A DNA stretch of 27,420 nt from Candidatus Symbiobacter sp. (GTDB lineage: Bacteria > Pseudomonadota > Alphaproteobacteria > Elsterales > Elsteraceae). The notes beneath the pieces are model-generated. The model was not told where the DNA came from and ran no database searches. It saw only the letters and a list, made by a program, of their open reading frames with translations. The stretch is taken from contig JASGCR010000002.1 in the NCBI GenBank assembly GCA_030054015.1, positions 1 through 27,420 of the forward strand, written 5' to 3'. A program made the translations under genes and the position numbers. Shown piece after piece: positions 1,929-24,819 of the stretch. The number at the start of each line of letters is the position of its first letter. The stretch's first letter is position 1.

Positions 1929-2732
1929 TTACCGCTCATGCATCATCTGTTTAATCCCGGCAATCGCCTTGGCGGGGTTTAAACCCTTGGGGCAGGTGCG
2001 GGTGCAATTCATGATGGTGTGGCAGCGATAAAGTTTGAACGGATCATGCAACGCGTCCAACCGCTCGCCGGTATTTTCGTCGCGGCTGTCGGATAAAAAT
2101 CGGTACGCCTGGAGCAAAATCGCCGGCCCCAAATAGCGGTCGCCGTTCCACCAATAACTGGGGCAAGACGTCGAACAACAAAAACACAAAATACATTCCC
2201 ACAAACCGTCCAATTTGGCGCGTTCCTCTGGCGATTGGAGGCGTTCGCGTTCGGGGTCGGCACTGTGGGTTTGCAGCCAGGGTTTGGTGTCGGCATATTG
2301 GGCATAAGGAACCGACAAATCCGGAACTAAATCCTTGATCACCGGCATGTGGGGGAGCGGGTAAATCGTGACGGCGTGGCTACATTCTTCGATGGGTTTG
2401 AGGCAGGCCAGGGTGTTCACCCCGTCAATATTCATGGCGCAGGAACCGCAAATCCCCTCGCGGCAGGAACGGCGAAAGGCCAGGCTGGAATCCATCTCGC
2501 CCTTCATTTTGATCAGGGCATCCAATACCATCGGGCCGCAATCATTGACATCGAGTTCGAACGTGTCGATGCGCGGGTTGCTGCCCTCATCCGGCGACCA
2601 GCGATAAACGCGGAATTCTTGGAGTTTGACCGGTTTGGCGGATGCGCCCGCCGCGCCTTGGCGACGCGGTTTCGCGCTGTGGCGGCGGCCTTTGGTGACT
2701 TTGGAATTTTTCGGCAGGGTAAGTTCGACCAT
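1929..2732 (-). CDS. sdhB: Succinate dehydrogenase iron-sulfur subunit
   Basis: [49 protein letters not shown]; GAGG RBS. Confidence 0.98.
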
Positions 2733-2775: not shown

Positions 2776-3474
2776 TTAAACATAATTCGGATTTAATAAC
2801 TTGTCGGTGCTGTAAACTAAATTTTCGATAAAATCGGCAACAATCTGCAACTCCGATTTATTGATGGGCAAAAGAGTATGTTCTAACGTCGTGATTGTAT
2901 CAGGTGGTTGTAAATCGGCTTGGTGAGCAATGATGTTACGACGGTCAACAATCTCTTTTAATTTTGCCTTTACTCGCCTAGATTTTTCAGACAATGGTAA
3001 AATCTCGCTTGTCTCTTGGACAAATAGTGCAGAATTTTCTTTGACTAATTCTTCCCAGAATTTTATATTTGTACAATATTTTAAATATTCTGTAATCTTA
3101 TCTGGTTGTTGCAAAGTCTGTCCCTGTAAAAACTCACGCACTTCAAGTTCAAAATATTTTACAGTATTTATGACGAAGACATCGAATTTTGTCGAATCAG
3201 CCCGATCAATCATTGAACCCAAGGTTCCTAGGGAAATTTTGAAATCCGAAAATTTATCTGTAGGTGAAATTTTTCCGAGATATATCATAACCATGCGGTC
3301 AAGGATAATTTCATGAAAATATAAATCCAACGCACTGACTCGCGCCACCCATTCCCATCTTAATAATTCATCGGGTTGCAAGGCGGTGCTGTAATTATTG
3401 GTTAAAAAACTATGGAGAGCAGAAACGTGATTGCACCTATCCCATGCGTCCTTGAATAAAATCAGTGCAGACAT
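2776..3474 (-). CDS. HEPN-domain protein, putative RNase (RiboL-PSP/MAE_18760-like by recollection of motif pattern)
   Basis: C-terminal RRNIIAH (Rx4H) at 2923-2943; N-terminal LLRWEWVARVSALDLYFHE helix; AT-rich (22/60 GC in 3001-3060). Confidence 0.75.
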   Translation of the reverse strand: MSALILFKDAWDRCNHVSALHSFLTNNYSTALQPDELLRWEWVARVSALDLYFHEIILDRMVMIYLGKISPTDKFSDFKISLGTLGSMIDRADSTKFDVFVINTVKYFELEVREFLQGQTLQQPDKITEYLKYCTNIKFWEELVKENSALFVQETSEILPLSEKSRRVKAKLKEIVDRRNIIAHQADLQPPDTITTLEHTLLPINKSELQIVADFIENLVYSTDKLLNPNYV

Positions 3475-3504
3475 GGCCTAATTCTCGCCTTAGATTGACG
3501 GCTA

Positions 3505-4572
3505 TTAAGCCGCCTTTGATGATTCTGAGGTGTTATGACGGCATTCTGAGAGGGCAAATATTTTATTTGCTAAAGTTTTGTATAAGTCATAATATTCTTG
3601 AATATTTCCTTCATTCGTTATAGCGCGTGTACCAGTTCCCTTTGCGTCGGGCGGCAAGCAAAATATCGGCACATTTTCTTCATGCGATTTTGCCATTAGG
3701 CTCTTAAAATCTTTTGCTTGGACGATAGATTCCGATGGGTCTATTCCCATGACTTTTTTAAATACATCGATATCCAACATGTGGTGGTCGCGCATTTTCG
3801 GTACAAACTTGTCTTTCATAGCCTGATTTATCCATTTTTGAAACAACACTGAAGCCTCCATACTATAAGGCTGGAAACGGGATATAATTGCACCAGCAAA
3901 TTGGACATGGGGGGGTAGAAACGGATAAGTTGCTTCGCGCAAGATATTCGTTTGACTGGCCTTTTCAGCCCATTTTTTCCAATTGGGCAAAGCCTTAGAC
4001 AGTGAATTAATTGCCATAGCCGAAAAATAATCTGGCTGCATCGGCACGATGAAATAATCCGAAGTCATGATGATATTCATATTAATTGGACTTAGGCTGG
4101 GGTTTAAATCAACCAAAACATAATCAATGTTATATTTTTCTGCCGTGCGATCAATCATATACTTCAAAGAACCTGGTATGTTTTTTAATACAATCAATTC
4201 ATGCCCCAATTGCTGGGCCAAGCCCAAAGTAGCCTCATACTGTGCCATTTCCAGGTGACCAGGCAGAATAAATAAATTTGGCTGCTTATCAATTTGTACA
4301 CATTCGGCCCCGGAAATAAGCACTGGCTGGCATTCAAAAGCCGGGGCTAAGGCATCCCTAACATTATTTGCCGGCTTGGCTGTGTAAAATTGCTCTAGAT
4401 CATCGATTTCCTTAAATTTCAGTGTAAGGCCGGTTAAATTACATTGCGGATCAAAATCCACCAACAAGACACGCTTTCCTAATTCCGCCATCATCCAGCC
4501 CAGGCTGAACACCGTGGTGGTTTTGCCGACTCCACCTTTGTGATTAAAAAAACTAATGATTTTTGCCATCAT
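3505..4572 (-). CDS. ParA/Soj-family ATPase (non-partition type)
   Basis: FFNHKGGVGKTT deviant Walker A, LVDFDPQCNLT, YVLVDLNPSL, SDYFIVP; GAGAGGAG upstream of ATG 4572/4569; no parB adjacent. Confidence 0.9.
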   Translation of the reverse strand: MMAKIISFFNHKGGVGKTTTVFSLGWMMAELGKRVLLVDFDPQCNLTGLTLKFKEIDDLEQFYTAKPANNVRDALAPAFECQPVLISGAECVQIDKQPNLFILPGHLEMAQYEATLGLAQQLGHELIVLKNIPGSLKYMIDRTAEKYNIDYVLVDLNPSLSPINMNIIMTSDYFIVPMQPDYFSAMAINSLSKALPNWKKWAEKASQTNILREATYPFLPPHVQFAGAIISRFQPYSMEASVLFQKWINQAMKDKFVPKMRDHHMLDIDVFKKVMGIDPSESIVQAKDFKSLMAKSHEENVPIFCLPPDAKGTGTRAITNEGNIQEYYDLYKTLANKIFALSECRHNTSESSKAA

Positions 4573-19418: not shown

Positions 19419-21608
19419 TTGTATTTCACAGAATCGGGACATTTTGCCTTGATCTTGGCGGCGGTGATTGCGCTGTTGCAGGCGGTCTGTGGGTTTTATG
19501 GGGCCAGTGCGCGGCGACTGGTCTATGTGCAGGTGGCAGAGAGGGGGGCATTGCTGCAATTTACGGCGGTGGCGGTCAGTTTTGCCTGTTTAATGTCGCG
19601 CTTTATCGCCTCGGATTTTTCGGTGGCTCTGGTGGCGCAGGGGTCGCGTTATGATTTACCCTTAATGTATCGCATGACGGCTTTGTGGGGCAATCACGAA
19701 GGCTCGATGCTGTTATGGGTCACGATTTTGGCCTTGTTTGGCGCGGGTTTTGTCATAAGCAGTGGCAAATTGGCCCCGCTGTTGCGGGTGCGGGTGGTGG
19801 CGGTGATGGGGCTGATTGGGGTGGGGTTTTACGGCTTTATCTTATTCACCTCGGATCCGTTTGCGCGATTGTCGCCCGCCCCGATTGAGGGGCAAGGCCT
19901 CAATCCGATTTTAATGGACCCTGGCCTGGCGTTTCACCCGCCTTTGCTTTATTTGGGCTATGTCGGATTTGCGGTGGCTTTTGCCTTTGCGGTGGCGGGG
20001 TTGTTGGCGGGCGAGATTGATGCCGCCTGGTCGCGTTGGTTGCGGCCTTGGGTGCTGACGGCGTGGATTTTTCTGACGCTGGGCATTTGTTTGGGCAGTT
20101 GGTGGGCTTATTATACTTTGGGGTGGGGCGGCTGGTGGTTTTGGGACCCGGTCGAAAATGCCGCTTTGATGCCGTGGTTGCTGGGGACGGCCTTGCTGCA
20201 TTCGGTGTTGGTGGTGGAGCGGCGCGAGGCCTTAAAACGCTGGACATTATTATTGGCGATTTTGACCTTTGGACTTAGCCTGATCGGTACCTTTTTGGTG
20301 CGGTCGGGGGTTTTGACCTCGGTTCATGCCTTTGCCAGTGATCCTGAACGCGGGGTCTATATTTTGCTGTTGGTCGTGGTTTTATTGGGCGGCGCGTTGC
20401 TGTTATACGCGTTGCGGGTGCCGCGTCTGAGCCATGGAGGGATTTTTGCCCCGATCAGCCGTGAATCGGCCCTGGTGGTGAATAACATCGCTTTGTGTTC
20501 GGCGGCGGTGGCGGTGTTTGTGGGGACGCTCTACCCGATTGTCCTTGGCATTATTGGGGCGGCACCGGTGACGGTGGGGCCGCCTTATTTTATGATCACA
20601 TTTTTGCCGATGGTGACACCTTTATTGGTGGCGGTGGCGATTGGGCCGATGCTGGCTTGGAAACAGGCCGATCTTTGGGCAGCGATGCAACGACTTGGCG
20701 TGGCGGCACTGGGTCTGCTGTTGGTATTGGGCTGTGTGTATGGGGTGGTGGCGCATGTGCCGGCCTTGGCCTGGTTTGGGGTGGGGTTTGCGACATGGAT
20801 TGCCCTTGGTACCCTCACCGAATGGTCGGAACGGGTTGGCTTGTTTCATCTGCCGCTCCAGGTGGTGATGCGGCGGATGCGCTTTTTGCCGATGTCGGCC
20901 TGGGGCAAAAGCCTCGCTCATATGGGCTTGGCGGTGTCGATCTTGGGCATGGCCGGATCGGCGTTTCGGGACGAAGCCATCCAGGTCATGTACCCGCAAC
21001 AAAGCCTAACCCTGGGTCACCTAAGCTTGCAGATGAACCAGATCACCCGCGCCGACAAAGGCGGCTACCTCGCCGATAGGGCCGAATTCAGCGTGTGGCG
21101 CAAGGGCAAAAACATCAATAGCTTGGTGGCGGAGAGGCGGATTTTTGGCGAAAAATCTGATTCATCCGAGGGGCAGGTCACCCAGGTCACGGCGATTGCC
21201 TCGCATGGATTTTATAATCTTTATGTCGCTTTGGGCAATCTGGCACCGCCTAATTCCGGTTCCGGTTCCGGTTCCAGTTCCAGTTCCGGTTCCGGTTCCA
21301 GTTCCAATTCCAATTCCAATTCCAATGACACGGCGGGAAAGTTTTTGAAAAAAGGCAACATGTCGGCAGAAAAACCCAATTCTGCCGCCAACCCGCCACT
21401 GCCACCGCCAAGCCTCGCCGCGCCGCCGCCTGCGACCGGTTTCGTCGTGCGGGTTTATTTAACCCCTTTGGAATCGTTTATTTGGTTTGGGGCGGTGATG
21501 ATGGCGTTGGGCGGCGGGTTGGCTTTGTTGGACCGCACGTCGCATCAACGGCAATTGCGCTTATGGACGAAAATGGGCTTGGATGGCGGCGAGCGGAGGA
21601 CATTCTGA
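19419..21608 (+). CDS. ccmF: Cytochrome c heme lyase
   Basis: WGNHEGSMLLW, HPPLLYLGY, WGGWWFWDPVEN, VHAFA; TTG start uncertain by a few codons. Confidence 0.96.
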   Translation: MYFTESGHFALILAAVIALLQAVCGFYGASARRLVYVQVAERGALLQFTAVAVSFACLMSRFIASDFSVALVAQGSRYDLPLMYRMTALWGNHEGSMLLWVTILALFGAGFVISSGKLAPLLRVRVVAVMGLIGVGFYGFILFTSDPFARLSPAPIEGQGLNPILMDPGLAFHPPLLYLGYVGFAVAFAFAVAGLLAGEIDAAWSRWLRPWVLTAWIFLTLGICLGSWWAYYTLGWGGWWFWDPVENAALMPWLLGTALLHSVLVVERREALKRWTLLLAILTFGLSLIGTFLVRSGVLTSVHAFASDPERGVYILLLVVVLLGGALLLYALRVPRLSHGGIFAPISRESALVVNNIALCSAAVAVFVGTLYPIVLGIIGAAPVTVGPPYFMITFLPMVTPLLVAVAIGPMLAWKQADLWAAMQRLGVAALGLLLVLGCVYGVVAHVPALAWFGVGFATWIALGTLTEWSERVGLFHLPLQVVMRRMRFLPMSAWGKSLAHMGLAVSILGMAGSAFRDEAIQVMYPQQSLTLGHLSLQMNQITRADKGGYLADRAEFSVWRKGKNINSLVAERRIFGEKSDSSEGQVTQVTAIASHGFYNLYVALGNLAPPNSGSGSGSSSSSGSGSSSNSNSNSNDTAGKFLKKGNMSAEKPNSAANPPLPPPSLAAPPPATGFVVRVYLTPLESFIWFGAVMMALGGGLALLDRTSHQRQLRLWTKMGLDGGERRTF
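21255..21326 (+). repeat. In-frame hexamer array, 12 units TCCGGT/TCCAGT/TCCAAT, within ccmF
   Basis: Direct reading; encodes SGSGSGSSSSSGSGSSSNSNSNSN. Confidence 0.95.
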
Positions 21609-22232: not shown

Positions 22233-23564
22233 GTGATTGCACGCGAAAACCCGTCGGATTCTGCGTTGCCAAACCAGGCCCCTCGCACCCTGTCGCTTTA
22301 CATCCATTTTCCCTATTGCTTGTCCAAATGTCCATATTGCGATTTTAATTCTCATGTGCGCCCTGACTTGGCATTTTTGCCCGAATCCAAGTTGCCCGCA
22401 TCGCATTTGCCCGAATCCAAATCCAAAGGTGATGGCGCGTCCAATCGCGCGGCGCGGGCGGCGGAGCAACGTTGGCAAGAATCGCTGTTGCTTGCGCTGG
22501 ATCGCCAGATGGCGCGTTTGGGGTATCCGCTCGGTTTGGCTCAAACCCATAGTGTCAGCTCGATTTTTTTTGGCGGCGGTACGCCTTCGCTGATTGACCC
22601 GATGGTGGTGGCCGAGATTCTGACCGCCATAAAACAGCGTTTTCGCCTCGATGCGGGGTGTGAAATTACCTTAGAAGCCAATCCGAACAGCTCGGAATCC
22701 CAGCGATTTTCCCAATTTCGCCAGGCCGGGATCAACCGCCTGTCTTTGGGGGTGCAATCGCTGGATGACCGGGCTTTGCGCTTTTTGGGGCGGGGGCATT
22801 CCGCCGCCGAAGCCCTCCACGCCATCCAGGCCGCCGCGCAAAATTTTGATTTTTTCTCATTTGATCTTATTTACGCCCGGCCCGAGCAAACCCTGGCGGA
22901 TTGGCATGATGAATTACGCCGCGCCTTGCAATTGGGGTCGTCGCATCTGTCGCTTTATCAATTGACGATTGAAGAAAACACGAAATTTTTTCATGCCTTT
23001 GCCCGTGGCGATTTTACCCTGCCCGATGATGATCTGGCGGGGGAATTTTATGAAACCACCCAGGCCATCATGACGGCGGCGGGCTTGCCCGCCTATGAAA
23101 TCTCCAACCATGCCAAAGCGGGGCATGAATCGCGCCACAATCTTGGCTATTGGCATTATGGCGATTATCTGGGGGTGGGGCCAGGGGCGCACGGGCGGAT
23201 GACCGATGCGGCGGGCGAGAAATTCGCTCTGGCCCAAGCCAAACTGCCCGAAACCTGGCAGAACCACATTGCCCAGGGCGGGGATGGTTTGTCCGAATAT
23301 AACAGATTGAGCCGACGGGATCGCTTTGCCGAGGCGTTGATGATGGGGCTGCGCCTGACGACAGGGATTTCCATGACGCATTTGGCGGATGAGGGAAATT
23401 TTTCGCGCGACAAAATCGATGGCTGGTTGGCATCGGTGCGCTGCCAAGCCTTGTTCCAGGAAAATTTTTTGCAGGTTAAGGGGGATTTTTTGTCCGCCAC
23501 CGCCGCCGGTCGGCAAAGGTTGAACGCGGTGTTGCGGGAAATGTTGGCCGAGGAAATTGTTTAA
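22233..23564 (+). CDS. hemW: Radical SAM heme chaperone (HemN-like)
   Basis: YIHFPYCLSKCPYCDFNSH, FFGGGTPS, EITLEANP, YEISN, HNLGYW..DYLGVGPGAH. Confidence 0.92.
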   Translation: MIARENPSDSALPNQAPRTLSLYIHFPYCLSKCPYCDFNSHVRPDLAFLPESKLPASHLPESKSKGDGASNRAARAAEQRWQESLLLALDRQMARLGYPLGLAQTHSVSSIFFGGGTPSLIDPMVVAEILTAIKQRFRLDAGCEITLEANPNSSESQRFSQFRQAGINRLSLGVQSLDDRALRFLGRGHSAAEALHAIQAAAQNFDFFSFDLIYARPEQTLADWHDELRRALQLGSSHLSLYQLTIEENTKFFHAFARGDFTLPDDDLAGEFYETTQAIMTAAGLPAYEISNHAKAGHESRHNLGYWHYGDYLGVGPGAHGRMTDAAGEKFALAQAKLPETWQNHIAQGGDGLSEYNRLSRRDRFAEALMMGLRLTTGISMTHLADEGNFSRDKIDGWLASVRCQALFQENFLQVKGDFLSATAAGRQRLNAVLREMLAEEIV

Positions 23565-24202
23565 TTCGAACTTGCCCACCGTATGGGTTTTAACAAAAGG
23601 CGGCCTTTGCTGTCGGTGATGATGTCGTTAAATTGGGCGGAGGCAAGCCGATTTGGCGTGATGTGGCGTACGTGATCGACGACCTGGCGTAATTGCGGTG
23701 CCGCCTGCCTTTGATCTAGCCAACCCAAGATAATGATTTTCTTAAGATCAGCTTTGACGAGTTTTAAGGGCAAAACAAAATCGGTATCTTGCGACATCAC
23801 CAAGGCGATGTCATAATTATCCTGCCAACCATCATGCAGGAGATGCGAGGCCAGATTAACGTCCGTCCCTTTTTCCTCGGTGGTATGTACCAGCACATAG
23901 CGGTTGTTCGGGTCGGGGGGATCGACCAAAGGTCGGGAAATTGTCTTTGGCAAAAAATTGCCGTAAATTATTTCAAGGGTTGGAATCGTTTCCAAGGCGC
24001 GGAGATAAATATGCTGGCGTTTGGGTTCGTCCGGATCATCGCGCCCCGACACACGGGCGGTGAAATATTTGATTTTGACAATGTGGTCGGTGGGGTCAAT
24101 CAGCGATGTCGATAATTTATGCAGATCAAGCCATTTATACGGGGTTTTGCGAAGGGCGCGGTAATAGAGGTTAAAGCCATCGATATACACCGCGACGCGC
24201 AT
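23561..24202 (-). CDS. NYN-domain (PIN-like, LabA/DUF88) putative RNase
   Basis: RVAVYIDGFNLY, EEKGTDVNLA, MSQDTDF acidic catalytic pattern; start ATG 24202 after GGGGAAG. Confidence 0.88.
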   Translation of the reverse strand: MRVAVYIDGFNLYYRALRKTPYKWLDLHKLSTSLIDPTDHIVKIKYFTARVSGRDDPDEPKRQHIYLRALETIPTLEIIYGNFLPKTISRPLVDPPDPNNRYVLVHTTEEKGTDVNLASHLLHDGWQDNYDIALVMSQDTDFVLPLKLVKADLKKIIILGWLDQRQAAPQLRQVVDHVRHITPNRLASAQFNDIITDSKGRLLLKPIRWASSN

Positions 24203-24206
24203 GACC

Positions 24207-24350
24207 GCTTCCCCCCGAAGCAATTTATTAATCAGCCGATTCTGTGACCGGGCTGATGCGATATTTGGTTAGTGTCAAAACAGCAAAGCCAGCAACTTAG
24301 TTCTAAAGAGTTCTAAGTTACTGGCTTTGTGCCAATAGCACGCTATTGGC
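24207..24350 (-). ncRNA. Candidate structured leader RNA of the NYN gene (four hairpins)
   Basis: Stems 24331-24350, 24284-24329 (17 bp incl. one G-U on minus strand), 24231-24257, 24207-24221; expression not shown. Confidence 0.4.
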
Positions 24351-24364
24351 GGGTTTATGAAATC

Positions 24365-24393
24365 AATATAGCAGTCCCAAAAATGTTTTTCAA
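24365..24393 (-). promoter_or_regulatory. Sigma70-like promoter TTGAAA-N17-TATATT for the NYN gene
   Basis: -35 at 24388-24393, -10 at 24365-24370, 17-nt spacer counted. Confidence 0.6.
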
Positions 24394-24428: not shown

Positions 24429-24819
24429 GGCCGCTGCCGCCTGCGACAAAACGGCCAGATAAAAATCTGCCCCTTGGGAGTGAATTGCCTGTAAACTGCT
24501 GACATGAAAGTTTGGCCCTAAGCAAATAGGCTCCACGAAAATCGGCAAAACAGAGATCATCCGACCCTACGGGCTGAAATCTTGAGGACTAAGTAGACTC
24601 AAATTCGGTGAAATGGCCGCGCCCACCGCCTTCCTCTCCTTGCAAAAACCGCAAATCTCAGTCTATTTTACCCATGAGCGCAATCGATGAAATAGAAATA
24701 AACCCACGAAAGACTGTCATGATCAAATTCGTACAAATAAATTAAAGGGCTTAACAACGGGCCATCAATTCGAGATCGGGTGAAGATTAGGCGTAAAAAC
24801 TTAACGCACCGACCATAAG

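Follow-up and report, generated by a model that had tools for sequence, protein, structure and literature searches.

The window analyzed here is a 27,420-nucleotide (nt) stretch of Candidatus Symbiobacter sp. DNA (assembly GCA_030054015.1, contig JASGCR010000002.1), and our subject is the leader of a gene for an NYN-domain nuclease that lies in it between hemW and hemA. The first two hairpins of this leader are a member of an apparently undescribed RNA family partnered with NYN nucleases of the HEC-09 type. The gene, which the initial annotation had called an orphan, thus appears in this genome as one half of a two-part cassette rather than as a lone gene. The features that carry this finding are as follows.

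23561-24202, minus strand: NYN-domain nuclease gene (ATG at 24202; 213 amino acids; PADLOC candidate defense family HEC-09)
24365-24393, minus strand: predicted sigma-70-type promoter (-35 TTGAAA at 24393-24388, 17-nt spacer, TG-extended -10 TATATT at 24370-24365)
24274-24357, minus strand: conserved RNA motif (C-rich 5' end with ACCC, hairpin 1, one-base linker, terminator-like hairpin 2, U-rich tail)
24350-24331, minus strand: hairpin 1, GCCAAUAG-CGUG-CUAUUGGC (8 pairs and a CGUG tetraloop)
24329-24284, minus strand: hairpin 2, a stem of 17 uninterrupted pairs (one of them U-G on the NYN strand), with base AAAGCCAGUAAC/GUUGCUGGCUUU
24274-24283, minus strand: U-rich tail CUGUUUUGAC, 3' of hairpin 2 and forming with it an intrinsic-terminator-like site

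A conserved two-hairpin RNA upstream of NYN genes

Homologs of the NYN protein are numerous (~6400 in a large protein collection, roughly 207-213 amino acids in length), and we took 80 homologous loci from contigs representing one genome per species. The sampled loci span at least 15 phyla, including Proteobacteria, Chloroflexota, Acidobacteriota, Verrucomicrobiota, Planctomycetota, Armatimonadota, Gemmatimonadota, Nitrospirota and candidate phyla. Within the 160 nt upstream of each gene, almost every locus shares a single layout: a C-rich 5' end, hairpin 1, a linker, hairpin 2 and the sequence GCUUUUU. Hairpin 1 has 6-9 pairs capped by a tetraloop, either C-UUCG-G or, in the proteobacterial form, G-CGUG-C; the linker is 1-3 nt long; and hairpin 2 is a GC-rich stem of 9-17 pairs with a variable tip. 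The conserved motif, a short hairpin followed by a terminator-like hairpin and a U tract, measures roughly 65-85 nt.

A sequence-only MAFFT alignment of 52 upstream stretches gave an RNAalifold consensus of 15 pairs, and all 15 contain compensatory changes. The covariation score of this alignment was 0.744, compared to 0.286 in shuffled alignments; none of 500 shuffles reached the observed value, and sliding the pairing partners by 1-3 columns reduced the score to 0.22 or less. The covariation check that the initial annotation had proposed for the upstream regions of homologs came out in its favor for hairpins 1 and 2. Hairpin 2 covaries across the family at all nine of its modelled pairs, and 98% of its cells are paired. 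Over the 52 stretches, 95.4% of cells were paired versus 72.3% in shuffles, a share that is inflated by the fold-based filter used in choosing the seed alignment; this filter inflates neither the compensatory changes nor the number of further loci recovered beyond the seed.

A covariance model built from the 52-stretch alignment (R1; threshold E 1e-5 or better) placed the motif immediately before the NYN gene in 78 of 83 homologous loci, 26 of which lie outside the seed, and three further loci gave a weak match. The copy in the window matched R1 over the full model (47.4 bits, E ~1e-10), and thus fits the R1-defined family of NYN-associated two-hairpin RNAs, on the sense strand and beside a HEC-09-type gene. 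It is the sole copy in its genome by RNA model search, and neither BLAST nor the RNA model found a second copy of the leader there; of the three NYN-domain genes in this genome, only the one at 23561-24202 carries the motif. Across the family, G-U pairs outnumber A-C mismatches 114 to 20, and the fold therefore belongs to the sense strand of the NYN gene.

In 46 of 81 loci the 60 nt preceding the motif contain a sigma-70-type promoter (at least 9 of 12 positions matched), compared to 1 of 79 control stretches, and the -10 box of these promoters ends a few bases before the motif start. At the other end, a U tract (4 or more T among the 9 nt that follow the hairpin 2 stem) is present in 80 of 82 family copies. 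With a promoter just upstream and a U tract after hairpin 2, the RNA would begin at the start of the motif, and the motif would end in a terminator-like site.

Two explanations that dispense with a protein-associated RNA are weakened by these observations. Inverted repeats also form sites in DNA, and hairpin 2 of the window folds nearly as well on the opposite strand, so the motif could be a DNA palindrome (a recombination or operator site), or simply the terminator of an upstream gene, with no RNA feature involved. We consider this highly improbable: pairing is kept while the stem sequence changes, the G-U excess reveals a strand-specific fold, most loci have a promoter immediately before the motif, and the genes upstream of it vary in both family and strand. 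A leader with a terminator ahead of a coding gene would also suit a riboswitch, in which the sensing of a small molecule would decide whether transcription terminates short of the NYN gene. The odds are strongly against that reading as well, since both hairpins are plain stems with stable, variable tetraloops (UUCG, GNRA, CGUG), no conserved internal loop, junction or alternative fold is present, and the conserved letters cluster at helix bases and flanks, as expected of a protein site.

The motif did not correspond to a catalogued RNA. Against Rfam 15, the window gave nothing at E up to 10 beyond a chance match to SNORA12 (14.7 bits); 20 homologous loci gave no match at the gathering score; and the sole match among 4 homologous loci searched at E up to 1 was RNAI of a ColE1-type plasmid, which served as a positive control. 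The RNA is not described in the literature we covered on NYN proteins with type III toxin-antitoxin systems, anti-phage non-coding RNA and structured-RNA discovery, a coverage that excludes most papers in subscription journals.

The leader in the window

The promoter of the NYN module matches 10 of 12 consensus positions and predicts a transcription start near A24358, as the initial annotation had it. From there, that annotation described a leader of ~155 nt with four hairpins. Its observation was confirmed and its interpretation is partly supported: each of the four stems is present, and their conservation upstream of homologs is strong for hairpins 1 and 2 and lineage-specific for hairpins 3 and 4. 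The four-hairpin leader is consequently not one conserved unit. Folding of the leader exceeded that of shuffled sequences (z = -4.3 over 171 nt), with z = -6.9 over the first 85 nt. The remaining features of the leader are listed here.

24203-24273, minus strand: lineage-specific spacer of 71 nt between the motif and the NYN start, with hairpins 3 and 4
24257-24231, minus strand: hairpin 3, AUCAGCC/GGCUGAU
24221-24207, minus strand: hairpin 4, GCUUC-GGGGG-GAAGC, with the G-rich ribosome site within its loop
24375-24428, no strand assigned: perfect tandem repeat of 19 nt x 2.8 (TTGAAAAACATTTTTGGGA), overlapping the -35 box, with TTGAAA in every unit

Hairpin 1, which had been counted as a 9-base-pair stem, has 8 pairs and a tetraloop. 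The 17-pair stem of hairpin 2 pairs fully on the NYN strand alone, as claimed, through a U-G pair that becomes an A-C mismatch on the opposite strand (-24.9 kcal/mol for the NYN strand versus -22.7 kcal/mol). Because the U-rich GCUGUUUUGA follows directly 3' of it, hairpin 2 looks like an intrinsic terminator. The 7-base-pair stem and the GCTTC/GAAGC stem at the ribosome site also hold, as hairpins 3 and 4. Beyond the initial annotation are the 19-nt repeat, the U-rich tail after hairpin 2 and the confinement of conservation to the first two hairpins.

The nearest relative of this locus (L013) belongs to a metagenome-assembled alphaproteobacterium, GCA_026461565.1, whose NYN ortholog is 82% identical in protein sequence and whose gene order is the same as in the window (ccmF, ccmG, hemW, NYN, hemA). 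Between the two, all four outer pairs of hairpin 1 are altered on both sides with pairing kept (GCCA/UGGC to AUUG/CAAU). In hairpin 2 the base AAAGCCAGUAAC/GUUGCUGGCUUU is identical, and the 12-pair base together with the U-rich tail is nearly identical overall; a 10-nt insertion (direct repeat UUAGAACU) makes the tip longer in the window than in L013. The two leaders diverge past the U-rich tail. By leader alignment, hairpin 3 has a counterpart in L013 and hairpin 4 has none. The distance from the end of the motif to the start codon is 71-72 nt solely in the window, L013 and one other locus (L069), compared to a median of ~9 nt elsewhere, and hairpins 3 and 4 are therefore a local addition rather than a conserved element.

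The NYN protein and its genomic setting

The open reading frame (ORF) matched the Pfam NYN family PF01936 at 44 bits (cut-off 24.2; E 4e-11), and its protein matched PADLOC HEC-09 at E 1.5e-46 over residues 2-209 of 213. An AlphaFold2 model of high confidence (pLDDT 92.3) had as its top Foldseek matches the LabA-like protein VPA0982 (2qip, E 1.3e-8) and the NYN domains of MARF1 (5yaa and 6fdl). Six acidic residues (D8, E109, E110, D114, D139 and D141) are invariant in 26 NYN homologs; the protein is for this reason likely an active metal-dependent nuclease. The predicted model, the fold matches and the invariant residues together place it in the NYN (PIN-like) fold with a conserved acidic pocket. 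Searching the Protein Data Bank with the protein sequence gave no match, and an NCBIfam scan gave just a sub-threshold match to TIGR00288.

HEC-09 has been reported as a PADLOC candidate defense gene, a lone protein embedded in Hma systems, with no RNA mentioned (Payne et al., bioRxiv 10.1101/2024.01.29.577857). The protein of the window belongs to the same family, with the same MARF1-like NYN fold and conserved acidic pocket, whereas its gene lies among heme and cytochrome c genes and not in an Hma system. The stop codons of the NYN gene and the convergent hemW overlap in TTAA at 23561-23564, as the initial annotation had noted. Fifteen genomes of the same family offered no definable empty insertion site, as hemW adjoins neither ccmG nor hemA in them.

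The RNA and the nuclease are linked

The absence of an adjacent protein antitoxin, claimed at the outset, was borne out: the interval from the NYN gene to hemA contains no intact ORF, and the homologs have no conserved neighbor. Their 78 nearest upstream ORFs fall in 84 Pfam families, the commonest of which, phage integrase, occurs 4 times, and no cluster of ORFs (at least 35 amino acids, within 700 nt) occurs in more than 4 of 83 loci. We also took the RNA as the starting point. A search of 150 alphaproteobacterial genomes gave 11 strong matches besides the copy in the window; 9 are followed by an NYN gene or its remnant (1 frameshifted, 2 truncated or degenerate), and 2 are orphans. Because hairpins 1 and 2 covary and precede this NYN subfamily across phyla, because no protein partner is conserved, and because the layout matches that of RNA-antitoxin modules, a functional tie between the RNA and NYN is well supported.

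Motif copies were also seen in less regular surroundings. Intact, high-scoring copies lie beside frameshifted, truncated or degenerate NYN frames in L072 (3170-3234), L115, L116 and L117. Two genomes (G063 and G129) carry two motif copies each, and no intact NYN gene was found in them with an NYN query. In L082, a second copy (4273-4339, 43 bits) lies 1.1 kb downstream of the NYN gene, and 41 nt beyond it is a 70-amino-acid ORF resembling a HicB-type antitoxin (MDMRTIEVVLYREGAVWVAQ...), the sole case seen of the motif before another type of gene.

Plasmids, a prophage and variant layouts

The NYN family is carried on 205 plasmid records, including 3.4-4.6 kb plasmids of E. coli, Serratia and Salmonella, and on one Mycobacterium prophage; the R1 motif precedes the NYN gene on plasmids of Phaeobacter, Leptospira and E. 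coli. On the 4.6-kb ColE1-type E. coli plasmid CP057030.1, the hairpin 1 unit and its C-rich flank occur four times with a 33-nt period, followed by one terminator hairpin and then the NYN start. By analogy, this is the layout of a type III antitoxin array. Plasmids of the CP057030.1 type occur in 10 of 5426 complete genomes. A second E. coli plasmid (L095; NZ_CP063347.1, 3461 bp, non-mobilizable) has just two annotated genes, NYN and a VbhA-family antitoxin; by eye, two tandem full motif-like units, unscored by R1, precede its NYN gene.

Two loci place the RNA elsewhere. In the Mycobacterium phage prophiGD43A-1 (L097), the motif lies at 3617-3688 on the minus strand, convergent with the NYN gene at its 3' end and stop codon and with a promoter-like site of its own, and the NYN leader there has no R1 motif. 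In L077 the motif (2328-2394, minus strand) is divergent from the NYN gene and ~100 nt upstream of it. Since in both cases the RNA adjoins the NYN gene yet lies outside its leader, its placement points to an action in trans.

These layouts bear on the principal alternative, that the RNA is a leader acting in cis only: a transcription attenuator combined with a translation block that keeps NYN low, with no antitoxin role in trans. NYN may also exert feedback through its own leader, which it would bind or cleave in the way that RNase III and RNase E treat theirs. The distance from the end of the U tract to the start codon is 5-15 nt in most loci; the motif then makes up the entire 5' untranslated region, and the place where ribosomes land would be covered by hairpin 2. 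The single RNA unit of most loci, and the tolerance of HEC-09 in E. coli without defense, fit the same model. It does not readily account for RNA outside the leader in the Mycobacterium prophage and L077, for the fourfold hairpin 1 on E. coli plasmids, or for the high scores retained by orphan motifs and by copies beside decayed NYN genes; nor was a conserved alternative antiterminator fold found. We judge a cis-only leader unlikely, though a serious contender.

Known leaders of this kind differ in further ways. Those of rnc and rne, like the one described here, place conserved hairpins before a nuclease gene and allow the enzyme possible control of its own mRNA; unlike it, they lack a built-in terminator and belong to housekeeping, vertically inherited genes, not to mobile cassettes. 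No Rfam leader family matches the NYN leader.

The terminated transcript, of ~65 nt, could instead be a base-pairing small RNA whose C-rich 5' end pairs with the G-rich ribosome site of NYN, as a type I-like antitoxin, or with those of other mRNAs. The 5' end contains CCC in 63 of 69 loci, and a hairpin with a U tail resembles the Hfq-binding end of many small RNAs. However, pairing of each RNA with its own ribosome site was no better than pairing across loci (permutation p = 0.90), GGGG occurs at the ribosome-site region in just 12 of the 69 loci, and several loci have the start codon right after the U tract with no G-rich site. Such a role is improbable.

Two specific pairings were considered and rejected. 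One was pairing of the C-rich 5' end with the ribosome site to close a three-way junction, for which own pairs did no better than cross-locus pairs in the same permutation (p = 0.90). The other was an antiterminator formed by ACCC and the GGG of hairpin 2, which was dismissed on inspection as not general; the window has AAAGCC at that place.

A candidate RNA-antitoxin-like mechanism

Our preferred reading, which we put at about an even chance, is that the RNA both gates NYN synthesis and inhibits the nuclease, in the manner of an RNA antitoxin. In such a module, one promoter would drive a structured RNA of ~83 nt (hairpin 1, terminator hairpin 2 and U tract) with the NYN gene next. Transcripts would mostly stop at hairpin 2, yielding an excess of the small RNA, and NYN mRNA would arise solely by read-through. 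The small RNA would bind NYN, probably via hairpin 1 and its flanks, and hold the nuclease inactive as do the RNA antitoxins of ToxIN and AbiF/RCd22. Should transcription of the module stop, for example upon phage attack or plasmid loss, the RNA would decay and NYN could then cut cellular or phage RNA. The 71-nt spacer of the window, with its two local hairpins, would add a further layer of control over the ribosome site. The pointers to an antitoxin-like role are the occurrence on small plasmids, the four-unit array, the RNA copies outside leaders and the copies beside decayed NYN genes.

Several considerations weigh against this proposal, in addition to the filtering of the seed described above. 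We only infer that NYN is toxic, that it binds or cuts the RNA, and that transcription terminates at hairpin 2. HEC-09 with its native promoter region gave E. coli no protection against any phage tested (bioRxiv 10.1101/2024.01.29.577857). Most loci, that of the window included, have a single RNA unit, whereas a repeat array is the defining mark of type III antitoxins; NYN and ToxN have unrelated folds; and the module in the window is flanked by housekeeping heme and cytochrome c genes and is not in a defense island.

The comparison with type III toxin-antitoxin systems (ToxIN, CptIN and TenpIN) is nonetheless close in layout. Those systems likewise have one promoter, a structured RNA, an intrinsic terminator and then an endoribonuclease gene, with no protein antitoxin; both they and the NYN loci are found on plasmids and prophages and are scattered across taxa; and some NYN loci have tandem RNA units (4 on 4.6-kb E. 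coli plasmids). The window has the same order, with the promoter at 24365-24393, the RNA with its U tail at 24274-24357 and the NYN start at 24202. Unlike them, the nuclease has an NYN (PIN-like) fold and not one of those known for these systems (ToxN/AbiQ, CptN, TenpN), and most NYN loci have one RNA unit instead of an array; with its single unit, the window lacks the tandem repeats of type III antitoxins. The NYN-RNA locus may represent a new variant on the type III-like theme of an RNA-controlled nuclease.

The closest experimentally studied analog is AbiF/RCd22 of the Clostridioides difficile phi027 prophage, in which an RNA encoded upstream reduces nuclease gene expression and neutralizes the protein in cis and in trans (PMC12373285). 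In both systems a putative RNase gene is preceded by a structured RNA that is conserved. They differ in the protein, which is HEPN-type Abi_2 in AbiF and NYN here, and in the RNA family: neither the abiF RNA motif (RF03085) nor any other Rfam family matches the window or 24 homologous loci.

Taken further, the NYN protein and the two-hairpin RNA would form a new and very widespread class of RNA-protein toxin-antitoxin or abortive-infection system. In this class an excess of a single-hairpin RNA, set by a terminator, would directly inhibit a PIN-like RNase. Type III-like logic would then have arisen a separate time, here with another toxin fold and an antitoxin that is not repetitive. We hold this broader proposal to be tentative, at a little under an even chance. 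If the RNA does restrain the nuclease, the family would be a large and phylogenetically broad addition to the few RNA-antitoxin systems, with a toxin fold used by none of them. The inertness of HEC-09 would then be explicable, as a clone would carry its own inhibitor and need the right trigger, and the RNA field would gain a compact, very well-covarying protein-binding motif. At ~0.9 kb, and present on natural E. coli plasmids, the module is directly testable.

Other features of the locus

The 19-nt repeat at the promoter precedes the -10 box and has no relation to the RNA motif. Each of its units also holds a short A5/T5 inverted repeat. At the same place L013 has a different repeat, of 11 nt x 2.5 (TTGAAAGATTT), and none was found in the other 79 loci examined. 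The 19-nt repeat could have arisen by slipped duplication of the -35 region, or it could serve as a regulator site.

Further upstream, at ~24440-24720 on the minus strand, the window holds the remnant of a pentapeptide-repeat gene, which aligns with the first ~290 nt of an intact 231-amino-acid ORF in L013 (2614-3309). The remnant has an early stop after ~20 codons, and its homology stops abruptly at ~24440. Approximately 1 kb of L013, between the end of this homology and the NYN promoter, is missing in the window. Within the missing stretch, L013 has two tandem copies of ~110 nt (3370-3560). On the reverse strand, each apparently codes for a hydrophobic peptide of very short length (beginning MTPLSYALIGIMIF...) behind a GGA-rich ribosome site. 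These may be small membrane peptides.

On the far side of the module, the CcmF homolog of the window (19419-21608) contains a low-complexity insertion near its C-terminal part, rich in Ser, Gly and Asn and in Pro (…SGSGSGSSSSSGSGSSSNSNSNSN… PPLPPPSLAAPPP).

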